10,127 bases of DNA from assembly GCA_048884965.1 (NCBI GenBank), contig JBHLQH010000071.1, positions 1 through 10,127 on the forward strand. The letters are read 5' to 3'. The stretch's first letter is position 1. The number at the start of each line of letters is the position of its first letter. Under the pieces are notes generated by a model that was given only the letters and a program-made list of their open reading frames with translations, was not told the origin of the DNA and searched no databases. This DNA comes from Candidatus Thorarchaeota archaeon. GTDB taxonomy: Archaea; Asgardarchaeota; Thorarchaeia; Thorarchaeales; Thorarchaeaceae. Made by a program: the position numbers and the translations under genes. Positions 719 through 10,127 of this stretch are shown piece after piece.

Positions 719-1489
719 TTATCCACTTCTGGTATCAGACTCTGTGAAGTGTTTCTGCTTCACTGTTCTATTTATGAGAGGGACCTCAGGATTATTATCT
801 AAGAATCGGATAATCTCTCTATATTCTGTGGTGATCAAACGTGCTTTGAAGTTCTCATATATCCTCAATATAACTTCCAAGTCAGTAGTTGTATCTACAC
901 ACAATCTGTATTTGGGACGTGACACATCTGAAGGTGGATCTATATATCTGACACTGAATCTATCTTGGTGCGTGTACAAGTAGGGCATCACATGTTCACG
1001 TTCATATTGTTTTGAGGCATTTTTCATTGCTTCTGCTATTGCAGAGAACCTTGCGACTTCTACATCAAACCCTCGAGGATATGCCACTGGTTTATCCTCG
1101 CCGATTGTTATTGTCAAATAATCTACCTCATTCTCATGAAATTTTTCCAATGCAAAATCGATGATTTGAGCTGAAATCAGAGGGCAATCACCAGTAATCC
1201 TGACAATGGTACTGGGATTGTATTTCATTCCAGCATGATAGAAACGAGATAATACATCATCCTCTGATCCTCTGAAGACATCAAATCCTAGTGATTCAAC
1301 ATGATGTGCCAATATAGCATCTTGCTCACTAGTAGATGTCGCTAATACAATATTGTCTATTGATGATGCTTGTTTTACTCTTCTCAAAACCAGTTCAATT
1401 ATGGACCATTCGCCCACATGTTCTAGCGGTTTTCCGGGGAATCGCGAAGATCCCATTCTCGCTTGGATTATTGCAAGTGTTGATGTCAT
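719..1489 (-). CDS. spsF: SpsF-family cytidylyltransferase (CMP-nonulosonate synthetase-like, CTP_transf_3)
   Basis: Motifs AIIQARMGSSRFPGK, FRGSEDDVLSRF, VRITGDCPL, YPRGFDVEV, EREHVMPY and RLCVDTxxD. Start reassigned from 1516 to ATG 1489 (MTSTLAIIQAR), which matches the family N-terminus and removes the overlap with the pseI ORF. Confidence 0.9.
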   Translation of the reverse strand: MTSTLAIIQARMGSSRFPGKPLEHVGEWSIIELVLRRVKQASSIDNIVLATSTSEQDAILAHHVESLGFDVFRGSEDDVLSRFYHAGMKYNPSTIVRITGDCPLISAQIIDFALEKFHENEVDYLTITIGEDKPVAYPRGFDVEVARFSAIAEAMKNASKQYEREHVMPYLYTHQDRFSVRYIDPPSDVSRPKYRLCVDTTTDLEVILRIYENFKARLITTEYREIIRFLDNNPEVPLINRTVKQKHFTESDTRSG

Positions 1490-1535
1490 TCTAAGCAATC
1501 CCACAATGAGATGCAATTGATTTCATTGGATGAGC

Positions 1536-1581
1536 TATTTAAACCTAGCAATCGGAGGACATATTTCAGAATCTATAAATA
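1536..1581. promoter_or_regulatory. Divergent archaeal TATA boxes for spsF-pseB (-) and pseI (+)
   Basis: TTTAAATA on the - strand at 1536-1543, about 47 nt before the spsF ATG. TATAAATA on the + strand at 1574-1581, preceded by a purine-rich CAGAA and about 32 nt before the pseI ATG. Confidence 0.6.
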
Positions 1582-1612
1582 TCCACCACTGAGCTTGGAG
1601 ATAGGCGATGAT

Positions 1613-2662
1613 ATGGCTGAGGTTACAATAGGAACACGAAAGGTTGGCGATAAGCACCCTGTATTCATAGTTGCAGAATTATCTGCAAATCACTTGCAGC
1701 GTTTTGATCTTGCTCTTAGGCTAATTGATGCCGCAAAAGAAGCTGGCGCAGATGCCATCAAACTTCAAACATATACGCCTGACACGATTACTATCAACAG
1801 CGACAAAGAATACTTCCAGATTAAGCAAGGCACTATCTGGGATGGGACTACTCTTTACAAATTATATGAAGAAGCATATACTCCATGGGATTGGCAACCG
1901 AAGCTAAAAGAATACGCAGAATCCCTTGGTCTAGTTTGTTTCTCAGCTCCCTTCGATCCCACTGCAGTTGATTTCCTTGAAAAGATGCATAATCCAGCCT
2001 ATAAAGTTGCATCCTTCGAAATTACGGATACTCCCCTAATCAAGTATATGGCCTCAAAAGGCAAGCCTATGATCATATCAACGGGTATTGCAACTCGTGA
2101 GGACATCAATGAAGCAGTGGAAACATGTAGAACTGCCGGAAATGATCAGATCATTCTGCTGAAATGCACTTCTGCCTATCCAACTCCATTGAGCGATGTG
2201 AATCTGAGAACCATACCGGACATCGCTACAAGATATAACACATTGGTAGGCCTCTCGGACCATTCTATTGGCATATCGGTTCCTATCGCTGCGGTTTCAC
2301 TCGGAGCATGTTTGGTGGAGAAACATCTGATCATTGATAGATCTCAAGGAGGTCCAGATGCTGCGTTCTCACTGGAACCAGCTGAATTCAAAGAGATGGT
2401 AACTGCAATAAGACAGGTAGAAGAAGCTCTTGGAACTGCCAATTACAATCTTACTGATAAGATGAAAAGAAGTAGAGAATTTGCACGATCTCTATTCGCG
2501 ATAAAAGACATCATGCAAGGGGAAACATTGACAGAAGAGAATGTACGCTCAGTTAGACCTGCATATGGACTACCTCCGAGGTTCTTAGACAAAGTAATAG
2601 GCATGAGAGCAAAAGTTGAGATAGAAAAAGGAACTCCTCTTTCGTGGGAGATTATTGAATAA
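1613..2662 (+). CDS. pseI: Pseudaminic acid synthase (NeuB family, C-terminal SAF domain)
   Basis: Motifs FIVAELSANH, GADAIKLQTYTPDTIT, WDGTTLYKLYEEAYTPWDW, YKVASFEITD, LLKCTSAYP, GLSDHS and EKH, plus the SAF tail RSLFAIKDI...VRPAYGLPP. The QTYTPDTIT and TPWxW stretches are typical of PseI. Start reassigned to ATG 1613 (MAEVTIG), downstream of the TATA box. Confidence 0.92.
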   Translation: MAEVTIGTRKVGDKHPVFIVAELSANHLQRFDLALRLIDAAKEAGADAIKLQTYTPDTITINSDKEYFQIKQGTIWDGTTLYKLYEEAYTPWDWQPKLKEYAESLGLVCFSAPFDPTAVDFLEKMHNPAYKVASFEITDTPLIKYMASKGKPMIISTGIATREDINEAVETCRTAGNDQIILLKCTSAYPTPLSDVNLRTIPDIATRYNTLVGLSDHSIGISVPIAAVSLGACLVEKHLIIDRSQGGPDAAFSLEPAEFKEMVTAIRQVEEALGTANYNLTDKMKRSREFARSLFAIKDIMQGETLTEENVRSVRPAYGLPPRFLDKVIGMRAKVEIEKGTPLSWEIIE

Positions 2663-5011: not shown

Positions 5012-5782
5012 ATGCAGTTTGACTTCGCTCTGACCCAAACGGATGTTGTTGTCTTCTTCATCGCAGTAATCTATGCTGTGTTTGTGCTTACTGTTGCAGA
5101 TATCGCGAGAAGGAAGCTGAATATGGGATCAGATTTCACTCGAAAGATCGTGCATTTATTTGCAGGGTTGGCAATTTGGACTGTTCCATATTACACTCAT
5201 TCTTGGGTAGCAACATTCGTTGCTTTATTGTTTGCAGTATTTCTATTGCTAGCGAATAATCAGAGATTCAGTAAATTCTTCTCAGCTATGGCACGCCCAG
5301 AGGATGTGGAACATGGAAGCGTCAGAGGTCCGTTCTGGTATGCGGTATCAATAACCGTTCTTACTGGAATCTTTACGTTCCTAGGGTTTGAATCGATATA
5401 TTTCATCGCAGCTGCATCTATTCAAATGATGATGTTTGGTGATGGTATGTCAGCCCCAATCGGTATGAAATATGGGAAGAATCATACTAGAACCATATTG
5501 GGGTCCCATAGGAGCCTACAGGGGTCTCTGGCTCTATTCATTTTCTCGTTCATTGGAGCATTGATTGCCTTCTGGTTCTTTGGAATACTAAACTACGGAA
5601 CATTAGCACCGGGAGGAGCAATCCTTTGGAATGAAATATTTGTACTTGCGCTTATTGGAAGCGTTACTGCAACACTAGTAGAACTAGTAAGTCCAAAAGG
5701 TACAGATAATATTCTCTTGCCTTTCACTAGTTGTGCCGTAATGATAGTTGTTGGAATCGTGCTAGGTGTAGTAGTCTTCTAG
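5012..5782 (+). CDS. CTP-dependent polyprenol/phytol/dolichol/diacylglycerol kinase-family membrane protein (SEC59/VTE5/DGK1-like)
   Basis: Multi-pass hydrophobic protein with TRKIVHL, GPFWY, FGDGMSAPIGMKYGK, RSLQGS (the K-S-x-E-G position) and DNILLP. Confidence 0.85.
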   Translation: MQFDFALTQTDVVVFFIAVIYAVFVLTVADIARRKLNMGSDFTRKIVHLFAGLAIWTVPYYTHSWVATFVALLFAVFLLLANNQRFSKFFSAMARPEDVEHGSVRGPFWYAVSITVLTGIFTFLGFESIYFIAAASIQMMMFGDGMSAPIGMKYGKNHTRTILGSHRSLQGSLALFIFSFIGALIAFWFFGILNYGTLAPGGAILWNEIFVLALIGSVTATLVELVSPKGTDNILLPFTSCAVMIVVGIVLGVVVF

Positions 5783-6339
5783 CGACCGGGTTCAACGACC
5801 AATCTATAATAGTACGTTCGTCCAGCTGTGGGACTATCTCGCTCAATTCGAATCACTTGTCCTACTCTTGCACCAAGAACACGAGCAGCAGGATCTTCAC
5901 GTGCAATTCTAGGTAGCTGCGTCTTCTTGATCCCGTAGTGGTCAGTAACCATCGATACTTCATCATCTGATGCTATGACATGCTTTGGAACAATCTCATG
6001 ACCAAATAGCTCAAAAGAGGCGTAACCACCTTCGACAAGTTCCACTCGGGATTGACGGGCTTGCTTCTTAGCGGCAGGAGTAAATCGAGACCCACCTACA
6101 AGCATCCCTTCCTGAGATTCATTCTCTTCCATTGCACGTACTAGATCACGAACAAGAGCAACGCCGACCACCTTGGGCTCCTTGTATATCCAGACAACCT
6201 TCTTCACAGTTGTGTCCTTAACCTCTTTAGTAGGGAACATGACCCAGCGATTTTCATATTCCAAGAGTTCGCTTACTTCAAAACCTCTTAGATTCAAGAG
6301 ATTTCTGGTTTTTATAATGATGTCTGGAAGTTCGACCAA
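5779..6339 (-). CDS. rpo5: DNA-directed RNA polymerase subunit Rpo5/RpoH with an N-terminal restriction-endonuclease-fold (RPB5 jaw/Mrr-like) domain
   Basis: The C-terminal ~78 aa are a clear Rpb5_C/RpoH domain: HEIVPKH...QLPRIAREDPAARVLGARVGQVIRIERDSPTAGRTYYYRLVV. Start reassigned to TTG 6339, 5 nt after GGGTGA (SD), giving 186 aa. Confidence 0.93.
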   Translation of the reverse strand: MVELPDIIIKTRNLLNLRGFEVSELLEYENRWVMFPTKEVKDTTVKKVVWIYKEPKVVGVALVRDLVRAMEENESQEGMLVGGSRFTPAAKKQARQSRVELVEGGYASFELFGHEIVPKHVIASDDEVSMVTDHYGIKKTQLPRIAREDPAARVLGARVGQVIRIERDSPTAGRTYYYRLVVEPGR

Positions 6340-6362
6340 AGTATTCACCCTAGAGTGCTGAA

Positions 6363-6424: not shown

Positions 6425-6469
6425 TGAAATATCTTGTCAAGTAAGAAAATATTCACTCAATCTGTATAA

Positions 6470-6592: not shown

Positions 6593-6749
6593 TGCATGCT
6601 AAGCCTCCATTCTAACGTAATATGAGGCTCGAAAGGTCAATTTATGGCTTTCCTATGATTTCTTCCGCAAAACCTATCAAATTAACTAGCTAAGATAGTT
6701 TCAAATACTGCCATGATAAATGGTTGTTAACAGGTATGAGGCGATTCGC

Positions 6750-7175
6750 TTGGCTGGGTTAACAAAGGGAATGATTGCTGACGTACGAAATGAGAAGCAG
6801 ATTACTCTCCCAGAGGTCTTCTTCAATAATCCAATCTTAGCAGACATGAAGGCTGCCATGGTCATCTACTTTGAGAGATCGGGAGAAATCAGATTGATTC
6901 CAATGATGAGAATTGGAGGAGCTCGAGTACGACTTGAAGTAGAGAAAGTGAATCCTGCACTGATGCAAATCATGACCCAGCTCTTCAAACAATATGATTT
7001 GAAGGTCCTCTTTACAACAGGATTCTGCTTCGAACAGAACCGCTGTGTCTATGAGGTGTTCTTTGAAACAGATGATATCGATGACAAGGAAAGCAGGATA
7101 AGGAATACTATTGAAAACATCCCAGGTCTATTTGAAAGCGAATTCGAAATCCTAGAGATTGGAAAGGGTTGGTAA
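6750..7175 (+). CDS. Putative regulator: AbrB/SpoVT-like N-terminus plus ACT-like C-terminal domain
   Basis: The N-terminal IADVRNEKQITLP...MVIYFERSGEIRLIP resembles the AbrB swapped hairpin. The C-terminal ~80 aa show a beta-alpha-beta-beta-alpha-beta pattern ending IENIPGLFESEFEIL. Likely start is TTG 6750 after GAGGCGA; the ORF is open from ATG 6720. Confidence 0.55.
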   Translation: MAGLTKGMIADVRNEKQITLPEVFFNNPILADMKAAMVIYFERSGEIRLIPMMRIGGARVRLEVEKVNPALMQIMTQLFKQYDLKVLFTTGFCFEQNRCVYEVFFETDDIDDKESRIRNTIENIPGLFESEFEILEIGKGW

Positions 7176-7176
7176 C

Positions 7177-7749
7177 CTACTCCACAACTCGCAAGACAAC
7201 ATTTTCCTTGACATTTGTTTCAACGGTTTCCAGCTTTACATTCATTAAGGCTTCCAGATAACCTCGGATAAACGGCGCAGGGTAGAATGGACTACCAATC
7301 ACGATTAGGTCTTCCTTTAGCTTAATCTCACCCCACCCAGTTTCCTGCAGGAGACTAAGAATTGCTTTTCGGCTTTCCAGCTTCTTGGGATTCTTCCGGT
7401 ACTTGATGACAATGATATCTGCCTCGGGAGCTTGTTTGCCTGCTGTAATACCAAGCTCATACTGCTGATCAGGTGTCAGTGTCGAGAAGAATATCGATGA
7501 GATGGTCTCATAGGCCAATAGGACCCGAACATCATTGAAATAGATGCCACGATCAGTCCATTTATCGACATTGAGATCCAAATACTTACTAACTGCATCT
7601 TCAATTAATTGAGCTCTTGATCGAGCAACTCCTTCATCCACAAGATCATCGATTTTCTTCTTGATAGGTTGGCTAATTGTGACACTGATAATCTCCTTTG
7701 ATTCTTTCGAATCGCCCTTAGGACGACCAGCTGATTTTGTCTTCGACAT
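7177..7749 (-). CDS. Ribbon-helix-helix (CopG/MetJ) transcription regulator with V4R-like C-terminal domain
   Basis: IISVTISQPIKKKIDDLVDEGVARSRAQLIEDAVSKYL is a typical RHH. The C-terminus has GIYFNDVRVLL, YELGITAGK, GWG and FIRGYLEAL, the pattern of V4R-type domains. Confidence 0.75.
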   Translation of the reverse strand: MSKTKSAGRPKGDSKESKEIISVTISQPIKKKIDDLVDEGVARSRAQLIEDAVSKYLDLNVDKWTDRGIYFNDVRVLLAYETISSIFFSTLTPDQQYELGITAGKQAPEADIIVIKYRKNPKKLESRKAILSLLQETGWGEIKLKEDLIVIGSPFYPAPFIRGYLEALMNVKLETVETNVKENVVLRVVE

Positions 7750-7913: not shown

Positions 7914-8180
7914 TTGACACATTGTGAACTTTGGCTTGAGATGAAAGGGAAATCATTCAGAGTCGCTTTGCTTGTTCCTGCTGAGATTGATATTGCTGAA
8001 GAGTATATAGAATGCGAAGACTATGAACATCCTAGCGGAAAAGGATTGTACGTCACTAAGTGGTATGATGGGATTCATGGTGCGCGTGATAAGATGGATG
8101 CCACAGCACAATTCTATAATGATAAAGGCGTGAAATTCCTTTTCTTCAGAGAGATCAGACAACCACTTTGTAAGAATTAA
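7914..8180 (+). CDS. Hypothetical protein, 88 aa
   Basis: TTG-start ORF that fills the gap between an AT-rich intergenic region and a terminator-like hairpin. It has globular-protein composition and no recognised motif. Confidence 0.65.
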   Translation: MTHCELWLEMKGKSFRVALLVPAEIDIAEEYIECEDYEHPSGKGLYVTKWYDGIHGARDKMDATAQFYNDKGVKFLFFREIRQPLCKN

Positions 8181-8214: not shown

Positions 8215-8895
8215 TTATGGTAGCGATGGTACATACGGTGTAGGCCACGGTAGTACAATGCCCAACCAGCTTTCATTTAGTCCTGGAATCATGACAAGAA
8301 TACCAACAGCAATTGCTGCAAGACCAATTATTACCAAGATTGGAGTTGATGAGAAGACCTTTCCAATCAAAGTAATGAGTCCTACTGCAAGTCCGAATAA
8401 CCCATAGAAGAATATGAAGAGGATTACTCCGATGACAGCCATCCATTTCAATGATGTGACCTGTGCGATGTATTCACCAACAACAGGCAGTGTGACATAT
8501 TGAATTAGGAATCCATAGAGGGTAAATGTCACGAAAATTGCTGCTGCTCCCGCGAAGATGAATGCCAAGGGAAACTTGCTCAGCACTCTCATCATAAGAG
8601 CGAATCCAGCAACTATCAGAACTCCAGCTACTACGAGCGCGGCTGGTTGAGTTTGCCAGACTACATATCCTACAAGAACATCCAGAATTCCTACAAAGAA
8701 TCCTAGGAACGTTCCAAGTTTCACAACCACATCGAAAATTGTACCTAGCAATGGAATCGGGTCTGTAATATTCTCTAAGAGCCATGCTGCCGCAAGGATA
8801 CCAGTAAATATCAGAACCCAGCCAACAACCACTTCGTTGGCGAACCACGCCATAATTTCACCGAGGGTCAAGTCAAATACGCCAAATTGAAGCAT
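8215..8895 (-). CDS. Uncharacterised multi-pass membrane protein
   Basis: Almost entirely hydrophobic, with roughly 6-7 TM segments by eye. Start reassigned to ATG 8895 (MLQFG), 6 nt after GAGGTG (SD); the ORF-track GTG at 8904 is part of that SD. A TTTATA box lies on the - strand at 8941-8946. Confidence 0.85.
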   Translation of the reverse strand: MLQFGVFDLTLGEIMAWFANEVVVGWVLIFTGILAAAWLLENITDPIPLLGTIFDVVVKLGTFLGFFVGILDVLVGYVVWQTQPAALVVAGVLIVAGFALMMRVLSKFPLAFIFAGAAAIFVTFTLYGFLIQYVTLPVVGEYIAQVTSLKWMAVIGVILFIFFYGLFGLAVGLITLIGKVFSSTPILVIIGLAAIAVGILVMIPGLNESWLGIVLPWPTPYVPSLP

Positions 8896-8960
8896 AGTAT
8901 ACACCTCGTGCTTACTGTAGCAGACAAGGGAATCCTGTCCTATAAACTATTCCTAGATTA

Positions 8961-10127
8961 TCAAAATCCCATAATCGAAGTCGAAAGCGCATATGATGTT
9001 AGATACAGAAGAAGACACAATAATGCCAGAATCCTCGCCCTTTTCCCATCCACCATTTTGACATTCTGATAACCCGAGGAAGCAGTTACAATGGAAAGTG
9101 TCAACACTAGAGGTAGAATGTCAGCAGATGTAATCGGAACTGTATCTCCTTGAGTACCATCAAAGAGGAACTGTCCAATATACAGAAACGGAGCTAGGGC
9201 AGATAGCAAGCCCAATACAATGGCACTTGTTATACTCAAGATATATACCTTAAGTTTCTGTGCAGCGATGATCGAGTCTCGTTCCTTCGCAACAGCTGAG
9301 CGCTTTACCAAACGGGCGGCGATGCGAGAAATGCGTTCTCCTGCATCCTTCGCAGACATCTCACACATTCGTTCGACCATTGATAGGAGACCTGCTGTTC
9401 GCTGCCCAAGCGCTCTTTCTTGAGCTAAAGACAGAGCGTCACGTGTACTTCCATTCTTCCAGTAGATTGATTCAATCGCGGGATCGATAATCGACTGTAC
9501 TTCAGGACCGATGTCATCTCTAACTTCAGGAAGAGCAACCTCTAATGTATCACCCAACCTCAGTCTTTCTCCTAGCAGAATCATGAAATTAAGAAACTCG
9601 TCATATTCTCGAATGATTTCATCTTGAGAGGGAGGATTAAGTCCAATCTTTTGAGGTCGATCAAAGTATGCTGAGAACGAATGTGAGAATCTGGAACGAA
9701 GAAGTGCATTGATTGCAATGAAGAGAGGTGCGATCAATAGAATGGCAAGGTTGTTTGCATACCCGGCAAGGGAAATGGCAAGCGTCATCATGATGGGGAG
9801 ATAGGTGACAAGCGCAGCCACAATCAGTAGCCGACTCTCCACTTCCAGATTCTTCTGCCTTAAGGATGTATCAGCCTCAAAGGATTCACCTGACAGCATT
9901 TCCAGAAGTTCGGTCTTCTGCTCTAAGGATGAAAGAATCGCCATGAGATACCTGCGAAGATCATCTGAAGGTTGATTTGCTGCAAAATCTGAAATGCATG
10001 CCTCAGGAGGAGTGCCAGCATTTATCCTATCAATCATTTTCTTGAATTGCGCAGAGAGAAGAGGGTGCCTGGAATTTGCGACCATCTCTATTGCATCAAA
10101 GATAGTTCCTCCAGATTGAAACACAAT
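8961..10127 (-). CDS. Type II secretion system F-domain membrane platform protein (TadB/TadC/PilC/ArlJ-like), 5' end off the window
   Basis: Two T2SSF-like repeats, QSGGTIFDAIEMVA...LSAQFKKMIDRINAGTPPEACISDFA and LRLGDTLEVAL...STRDAL, each followed by TM helices. The frame stays open past GTG 10124 to the window edge. Confidence 0.75.
   Translation of the reverse strand: MVFQSGGTIFDAIEMVANSRHPLLSAQFKKMIDRINAGTPPEACISDFAANQPSDDLRRYLMAILSSLEQKTELLEMLSGESFEADTSLRQKNLEVESRLLIVAALVTYLPIMMTLAISLAGYANNLAILLIAPLFIAINALLRSRFSHSFSAYFDRPQKIGLNPPSQDEIIREYDEFLNFMILLGERLRLGDTLEVALPEVRDDIGPEVQSIIDPAIESIYWKNGSTRDALSLAQERALGQRTAGLLSMVERMCEMSAKDAGERISRIAARLVKRSAVAKERDSIIAAQKLKVYILSITSAIVLGLLSALAPFLYIGQFLFDGTQGDTVPITSADILPLVLTLSIVTASSGYQNVKMVDGKRARILALLCLLLYLTSYALSTSIMGF

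Follow-up and report, generated by a model that had tools for sequence, protein, structure and literature searches.

The gene at positions 5779..6339 on the reverse strand of the window, the whole stretch of 10,127 nucleotides of Candidatus Thorarchaeota DNA that was analysed, encodes a two-domain form of the RNA polymerase subunit Rpo5 (rpo5/rpoH; 186 residues, TTG start, TAG stop). The canonical RpoH domain is preceded by an N-terminal domain that is very probably homologous to the jaw of eukaryotic RPB5. Taken as a whole, the account that the gene encodes a working Rpo5 subunit of the full-length, RPB5-like form, with a jaw that does not cut, is quite likely to be correct. It is also fairly probable that the RPB5 jaw is an archaeal invention, produced when a disabled nuclease of the Mrr type was fused once with a relocated rpoH copy, that persists in most Asgard archaea and in Bathyarchaeia, was inherited by eukaryotes and has been overlooked.

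The N-terminal jaw has been described as found only in eukaryotes (PMC3906176, PMC2847245, PMC1802627, PMC3424549). Models of the Rpo5 of Thorarchaeota and Helarchaeota appear in a 2026 survey of archaeal polymerase subunits, the accessible part of whose text makes no remark on the N-domain. The preliminary description of this DNA had allowed that similar Asgard proteins might already have been described. No description of an archaeal two-domain Rpo5 was found in the searchable literature, which misses most subscription papers, so that an earlier description is possible, and the supplements of PMC10307638 hold no Rpb5 entry. The jaw would have been overlooked in archaea because the model archaea, and presumably the cultured Lokiarchaeia too, carry the short operon form and because Pfam labels the domain Mrr_cat. 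Databases annotate the long forms simply as subunit H, sometimes truncated.

The rpo5 gene and its start

The 186-residue frame extends from the TTG at 6339-6337 to the TAG at 5781-5779 and has no internal stops. A Shine-Dalgarno-like GGTGA (6345..6349, reverse strand) lies 5 nt 5' of the TTG, a motif that is enriched about 4-fold before starts in the source genome (83 versus 19 of 1315). An ATG, GTG or TTG was present at the matching position in 44 of 45 Thorarchaeota loci, and 37 of the 45 had an SD-like motif upstream. The preliminary description, which had placed about 108 extra residues with an SD-supported start ahead of the RpoH domain, is borne out by the intact frame, the GGTGA and the conserved position of the TTG. 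A translation start near 6015 was also looked for and is not the case, since codons 100-120 contain no in-frame ATG, GTG or TTG. A longer frame of 225 residues, beginning at a GTG at 6456, was rejected as the conserved start because it is broken by in-frame stops in some relatives; in some Thorarchaeota an in-frame stop lies just 2-4 codons upstream of the TTG-equivalent start. A sigma-70 promoter scan, using a model ill-suited to archaea, gave nothing over chance. The N- and C-halves of rpo5 are under equal purifying selection: compared with the closest relative, dN was 0.069 in each half, with dS at 1.9 or saturated.

It is hardly credible that only a short RpoH is encoded here and that the upstream frame is a chance read-through or the result of mis-assembly. 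Some related database entries are annotated as short, for example the 81-aa OGD57471.1 within a cluster of 182-aa proteins, but 269 homologues were found and nearly all were full length among the 120 matches listed. The conserved start and SD motif, the equal dN of the two halves and the startless codons 100-120 likewise argue for a single long gene, as do neighbouring genes conserved in 39-60 of 65 Thorarchaeota loci. Together, the full-length homologues, the start and selection data and the conserved neighbours refute the idea of an artefact.

RpoH domain at the C-terminus

The C-terminal RpoH/Rpb5_C assembly domain comprises residues 108-183 (5791..6018, reverse strand). Residues 112-181 matched Pfam RNA_pol_Rpb5_C (E 8e-26, 90 bits against a cut-off of 23.5) and residues 108-183 matched NCBIfam PRK09570 RpoH (93.9 bits against a cut-off of 83). 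Both cut-offs were passed, so the canonical RpoH domain reported earlier at the C-terminus is indeed present. R167 and R179 were invariant in 104 homologues and correspond, by the offset of the K. phaffii alignment, to yeast R200 and R212, conserved arginines that form salt bridges to Rpo1/Rpb1 (PMC1802627). It is established for the family that the C-domain anchors Rpo5/RPB5 proteins to Rpo1 (PMC1802627).

Neither a second Rpo5 nor a second copy of the N-domain was found in the source genome, which is 95.7% complete with 7.2% contamination. The rpoB-rpoA'-rpoA'' operon of this genome is located on contig C7, where no rpoH precedes rpoB. Its status as the sole copy suggests that the Thorarchaeote Rpo5 is incorporated into RNA polymerase. 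The C-domain and the sole-copy status are common to this protein and to the archaeal Rpo5/RpoH (PRK09570; PDB 4qiw_H, 2pmz_H). However, the canonical archaeal RpoH has about 75-90 residues, lacks the N-domain and is encoded directly before rpoB, whereas the Thorarchaeote form has 186 residues and lies outside the operon.

Similarity of the N-terminal domain to the RPB5 jaw

The N-terminal domain (approximately residues 1-105; 6025..6339, reverse strand) has the predicted PD-(D/E)XK fold of the Mrr/NucS type and is related to the RPB5 jaw. In a PDB search with the single sequence, eukaryotic RPB5 ranked above archaeal RpoH and the alignments reached into the jaw. When a profile built from 53 archaeal N-domains, with the C-domain left out, was compared with the PDB, eukaryotic RPB5 sequences took the first 11 places (E 4e-9 to 3e-3), and nucleases of the Mrr/NucS type were absent at E<=1. 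In the reciprocal search, a jaw-only eukaryotic profile was compared with the 27,941 ORFs of the genome and matched rpo5 alone at a significant level (E 1.1e-6; the next ORF had 0.37). HHalign aligned the archaeal N-domain with the eukaryotic jaw over 100 columns (prob 98.9, E 2.8e-17), although the eukaryotic set used both here and for the jaw profile had been gathered with a Thorarchaeota profile and is thus biased towards similarity, a bias from which the N-only PDB search is free. The similarity to the jaw anticipated in the preliminary description was therefore found at the profile level. Of the two Pfam families named for comparison, Mrr_cat was matched but RNA_pol_Rpb5_N (PF03871) was not, either by the query or by any of 24 archaeal long forms at E<=1.

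The predicted model of the N-domain alone had a pLDDT of 92. Residues 1-108 could be superposed on residues 4-137 of human RPB5 (Z 9.9, rmsd 3.4, 103 residues) and, as had been proposed, on the yeast subunit, where the N-domain aligned end to end with residues 5-142 (Z 9.7, rmsd 3.7, 104 residues). The best 35 Foldseek matches of the full-length model were all RPB5-family chains. That model had a pTM of 0.59, a low-confidence linker and an rmsd of about 9.5 to RPB5, and the RPB5 domain arrangement was not recovered in it. A complex prediction for the N-domain and Rpo1'' scored 0.00 and carries no weight either way.

Eukaryotic RPB5 (RPABC1/POLR2E; PF03871 + PF01191; PDB 1dzf, 7vba_E, 8uhd_E) has the same domain order as the Thorarchaeote Rpo5, and its N-domain likewise has the PD-(D/E)XK fold without the catalytic motif. 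The VG(V/I) and T(P)xAK motifs and the Rpb1-binding arginines of the C-domain are common to both. The Thorarchaeote protein differs in being about 25 residues shorter, with a shorter first helix, and in lacking the eukaryotic helical insert after DRGY and an insert of 3-6 residues ahead of the final strand. The RPB5 of large DNA viruses also has two domains. In the structural comparison of the full-length model the ASFV subunit (8q3b_E) came first (Z 11.2, rmsd 8.7 over 178 residues), at an identity of just 16%. Some viral-type RPB5 sequences are as compact as the archaeal long form; in the group-merged tree described below, viral-type sequences grouped with eukaryotes, apart from the archaeal forms.

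Jaw motifs and the domain junction

The LRGF sequence (residues 17-20; 6280..6291, reverse strand) is the equivalent, by alignment, of the DRGY motif of RPB5. The parallel drawn earlier between LLNLRGFEV and this motif is thus confirmed, and the other RPB5-like N-domain motifs quoted at the time are also present in the protein. R18 aligns with the DRGY arginine and is invariant in Thorarchaeota; the Asp of DRGY is not kept. The equivalent arginine was found in 64 of 68 archaeal, 33 of 33 eukaryotic and 21 of 21 viral-type sequences, as against 8 of 37 Mrr domains. In yeast, replacement of this residue (R26E) is lethal (PMC1802627). E54-P55 (6175..6180, reverse strand) aligns with K. phaffii E84-P85, and T87-P88 (6076..6081, reverse strand) with T116-P117, so that the two prolines would correspond to yeast P86, by a one-residue offset, and P118. 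Both prolines are present in the query and poorly conserved across archaea, P55 occurring in just 55% of Thorarchaeota; P86 and P118 are dispensable in yeast (PMC1802627).

The domain junction, from E100 to H114 (5998..6042, reverse strand), has a spacing of 14 residues. Exactly the same spacing was observed in 59 of 68 archaeal, 33 of 33 eukaryotic and 21 of 21 viral-type sequences. Spacings within the N-domain were larger in eukaryotes, mostly 50-62 residues for the R18-G59 interval compared with 36-45 in the archaeal form, and 16-20 compared with 13 for T87-E100.

Relationship to Mrr-type nucleases

The first 105 residues matched Pfam Mrr_cat (32.5 bits against a cut-off of 21) and, weakly, NA-iREase1. 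The N-only model was also similar to EndoMS (Z 11.1), AF1548 (Z 10.4) and NucS (Z 10.1), in keeping with the resemblance to Mrr-type domains that had been noted from the letters; judged from these models, the fold scores to the jaw are level with or slightly below those to the nucleases. The predicted fold is the same as that of the Mrr_cat, NucS (EndoMS) and AF1548 proteins (PF04471; PDB 5gkj, 2vld, 1y88) and of the inactive NA-iREase1 family (PF22722), with Z values of 10-11. Unlike the Mrr/NucS nucleases, the Thorarchaeote domain is fused to RpoH and behaves as part of a conserved single-copy housekeeping gene.

In profile comparisons, the archaeal N-domain bridges the Mrr-type nucleases and the eukaryotic jaw. 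The HHalign score was 93.0 for the archaeal-eukaryote pair and 91.4 for the archaeal-Mrr pair, as compared with 56.7 for eukaryote-Mrr, which agrees with the intermediate position between an Mrr-like nuclease and RPB5 that had been claimed. The eukaryotic jaw profile had a median of 27 bits on 68 archaeal N-domains versus 6.5 on 37 Mrr-family domains, and the Mrr profile a median of 32 bits on archaeal N-domains versus 16 on eukaryotic ones.

The metal-binding positions of the query are I8, V33 and I51, which replace the helix-1 Glu, the motif-II Asp and the motif-III Gln/Glu, respectively. The preliminary description had seen no PD-(D/Q)xK motif. This holds for the acidic and Gln positions, but the column of the catalytic Lys is kept, since K53, within WIYKE, occupies this column of the Mrr motif and is 98% conserved in Thorarchaeota. 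The complete D + (Q/E)xK motif was present in 0 of 68 archaeal long-form N-domains versus 30 of 37 Mrr-family domains. Among the 68, the motif-II Asp was kept in 19, the Lys in 10 and the Q/E in none. Judged from these residues, the N-domain would be catalytically dead. The conserved K53 and the surviving motif-II Asp could be taken to mean that the domain retains some nuclease activity, or a non-standard active site, that couples cleavage to transcription. This is very unlikely given that neither the full motif nor the Q/E occurs in any of the archaeal sequences, that the Lys is found in so few, and that the query has lost its metal-binding positions.

A small family of stand-alone, inactive Mrr-like proteins of about 115 residues, with a motif like W-N-R-S-I-G-V, was noted in Asgard family f21 and others (L303-L306, L240, L270) and is a candidate relative of the jaw donor. 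The two members tested stayed with Mrr in both N-domain trees.

Distribution and operon position

Rpo5 was found in 371 of 400 genomes of the query's phylum and an N-domain match in 227 of the 400. By family, the match was present in 71 of 85 genomes of the query's own family and in 30/31, 22/22, 19/19, 12/12 and 11/12 of others, and it was absent, or weak and unlinked, in Asgard families f4, f5, f6, f21, f22, f23, f25 and f29. The sources named for long forms are Thorarchaeota, Hodarchaeales, Heimdallarchaeota, Helarchaeota and Bathyarchaeia. A verified long form occurred in 14 of 151 sampled genomes of Thermoproteota, the phylum of the Bathyarchaeia, and in all 5 genomes of the small archaeal phylum of G401 (L111, L119, L136-L139), where L111 gave the top archaeal N-domain score against the eukaryotic jaw profile (43.6 bits). 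None was found in 51 genomes of the phylum of Methanosarcinaceae. The long Rpo5 is thus lineage-wide in Asgard archaea, where most families have it and several have kept the short form, and is not peculiar to the source genome; nor is it an Asgard-only signature, because it is present in Bathyarchaeia and the small phylum.

The long form was located directly before rpoB in 0 of 171 matches, many of them near-duplicates and kin and so not independent, and the short form in 51 of 53. Because operon position tracks the short and long forms, the short forms of Asgard archaea would represent the original operon copy, not truncations, and the long form a relocated fusion copy. The split tied to operon position provides a discrete character for the relationships of Asgard archaea and eukaryotes. 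For the short-form family f21, the idea that rpo5 is split was rejected, as the weak N-domain matches of this family are stand-alone proteins of about 115 residues far from rpo5.

Several variants were encountered in this survey. In many genomes of Thorarchaeota genera g10-g12 and g16, rpo5 is present as a tandem pair of intact long paralogues separated by about 640 bp (L297:1218-2494, L298:1433-2682); the source genome has one rpo5. In family f10, a 465-aa frame (L299:957-2351, G056) has three tandem jaw-like domains followed by an RpoH domain. A 246-aa Rpo5 frame outside the operon in family f25 (L195:985-1722, G285) has an N-part without a jaw-profile match, possibly a highly diverged jaw domain. 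The 81-aa entries OGD57471.1 and MGD0805021.1 (cluster P0154/P0282) among 182-aa Bathyarchaeia proteins suggest mis-called starts that hide the long form.

Origin of the fusion

In the group-merged N-domain tree, all Rpo5/RPB5 N-domains were separated from 33 Mrr lineages with a support of 100/99, but a group-merged alignment favours group monophyly and a free alignment confirmed the concern. With the free alignment and the catalytic columns removed, the branch between Rpo5/RPB5 and Mrr had a support of 51/80 and two long Mrr branches intruded. Most family-level groups held together in the full-length tree, where the placement of eukaryotes had a support of 46/32. A clade uniting the long forms with eukaryotes was neither shown nor rejected by the C-domain tree, which was built from 75 columns (p-AU 0.169). 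Asgard family f28 was located among Bathyarchaeia-like sequences in both the group-merged N-domain tree and the full-length tree. The case for a single origin therefore rests on the motifs, the junction and the profiles and not on the trees.

Archaea and eukaryotes might each have joined a different inactive Mrr/NucS-type domain to Rpo5, so that the likeness would reflect a common nuclease fold. The structural scores to nucleases, which equal or narrowly surpass those to RPB5, the response of the archaeal N-domains to the Mrr profile (median 32 bits), the eukaryotic insertions absent from the archaeal form and the weak tree support once the alignment bias is removed all fit such a history. Nevertheless, it is improbable: the domain order is the same, the 14-residue junction is identical, the RG[YF] arginine and the loss of the Q/E position are common to both, the eukaryotic profile favours archaeal N-domains over Mrr by about 20 bits, and RPB5 came first in the N-only PDB search. 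An independent fusion had been raised in the preliminary description as the outcome that would undo its proposal; the shared junction and DRGY arginine make it unlikely, while the tree support of 51/80 weighs on the other side.

A different history is compatible with the same homology, namely that the long form had its origin in a single lineage and was passed laterally between Asgard archaea, Bathyarchaeia and the small phylum, displacing the operon copy, in contrast to an ancestral long form that was differentially lost. We regard this as a tangible possibility, if an unlikely one. It would account for the patchy distribution (Asgard families without the long form; 14 of 151 Thermoproteota genomes), for the location of the long form, always outside the operon, and for the position of family f28 among Bathyarchaeia-like sequences. 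Against it, most family-level groups are kept together in the full-length tree and retention is near-universal within positive families (e.g. 22/22, 19/19, 30/31); the C-domain tree, with its p-AU of 0.169, neither shows nor rejects one clade of long forms and eukaryotes. The jaw part of the eukaryotic polymerases probably arose in archaea, and a single vertical origin of the long form is less certain.

Proposed role and history

The C-domain would anchor the subunit on Rpo1 and thereby bring the N-domain, by analogy with eukaryotic RPB5, to the distal end of the cleft for downstream DNA, where it would form a lower jaw that does not cut. In this position it may contact downstream DNA or serve as a platform for factors, as the jaw does in Pol I/II/III. 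A single fusion would have combined an inactivated Mrr-like domain with an rpoH copy outside the rpoH-rpoB-rpoA operon, presumably in or before the ancestor of the Asgard archaea. The fused copy may then have taken the place of the operon copy across most of the Asgard lineages and in Bathyarchaeia, and it would be this fused copy that eukaryotes inherited.

If this is true, the jaw predates eukaryotes, and intermediates on the way from a nuclease to a polymerase jaw are still alive today, some of them with the motif-II Asp retained. The ancestral job of the jaw would also be testable, as yeast rpb5 complementation and the reconstituted Pyrococcus polymerase without subunit H are established assays; human RPB5 itself fails to complement in yeast (PMC3906176). 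The finding extends a well-known subunit at the level of a domain and is not a new system.

Genome context

Close homologues of rpo5 (59-91% identity) come from records named Thorarchaeota and the genes that flank it here are its neighbours again in 39-60 of 65 Thorarchaeota loci, which indicates that the contig is not a contaminant. The neighbours include a membrane protein, a CinA-like protein, an HD protein and a ribbon-helix-helix regulator, and no link between them and the transcription machinery was seen. The conserved neighbours are located at 5012-5782 (forward), 6720-7175 (forward), 7177-7749 (reverse), 7914-8180 (forward) and 8215-8904 (reverse). Except for an RHH domain in 7177-7749, none of the five matched a Pfam or NCBIfam family. 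The stop of the gene at 5012-5782 overlaps the rpo5 stop. At the end of the contig, a gene at 8961-10124 (reverse strand), cut by the contig end and without a family match, encodes a membrane protein which, judged by eye, looks like a type II secretion F/TadC-like platform protein. At the other end of the window, a divergent cytidylyltransferase-like gene (719-1516, reverse strand) and a pseudaminic acid synthase gene, PseI (1511-2662, forward strand; above cut-off), were read together as nonulosonic acid synthesis.
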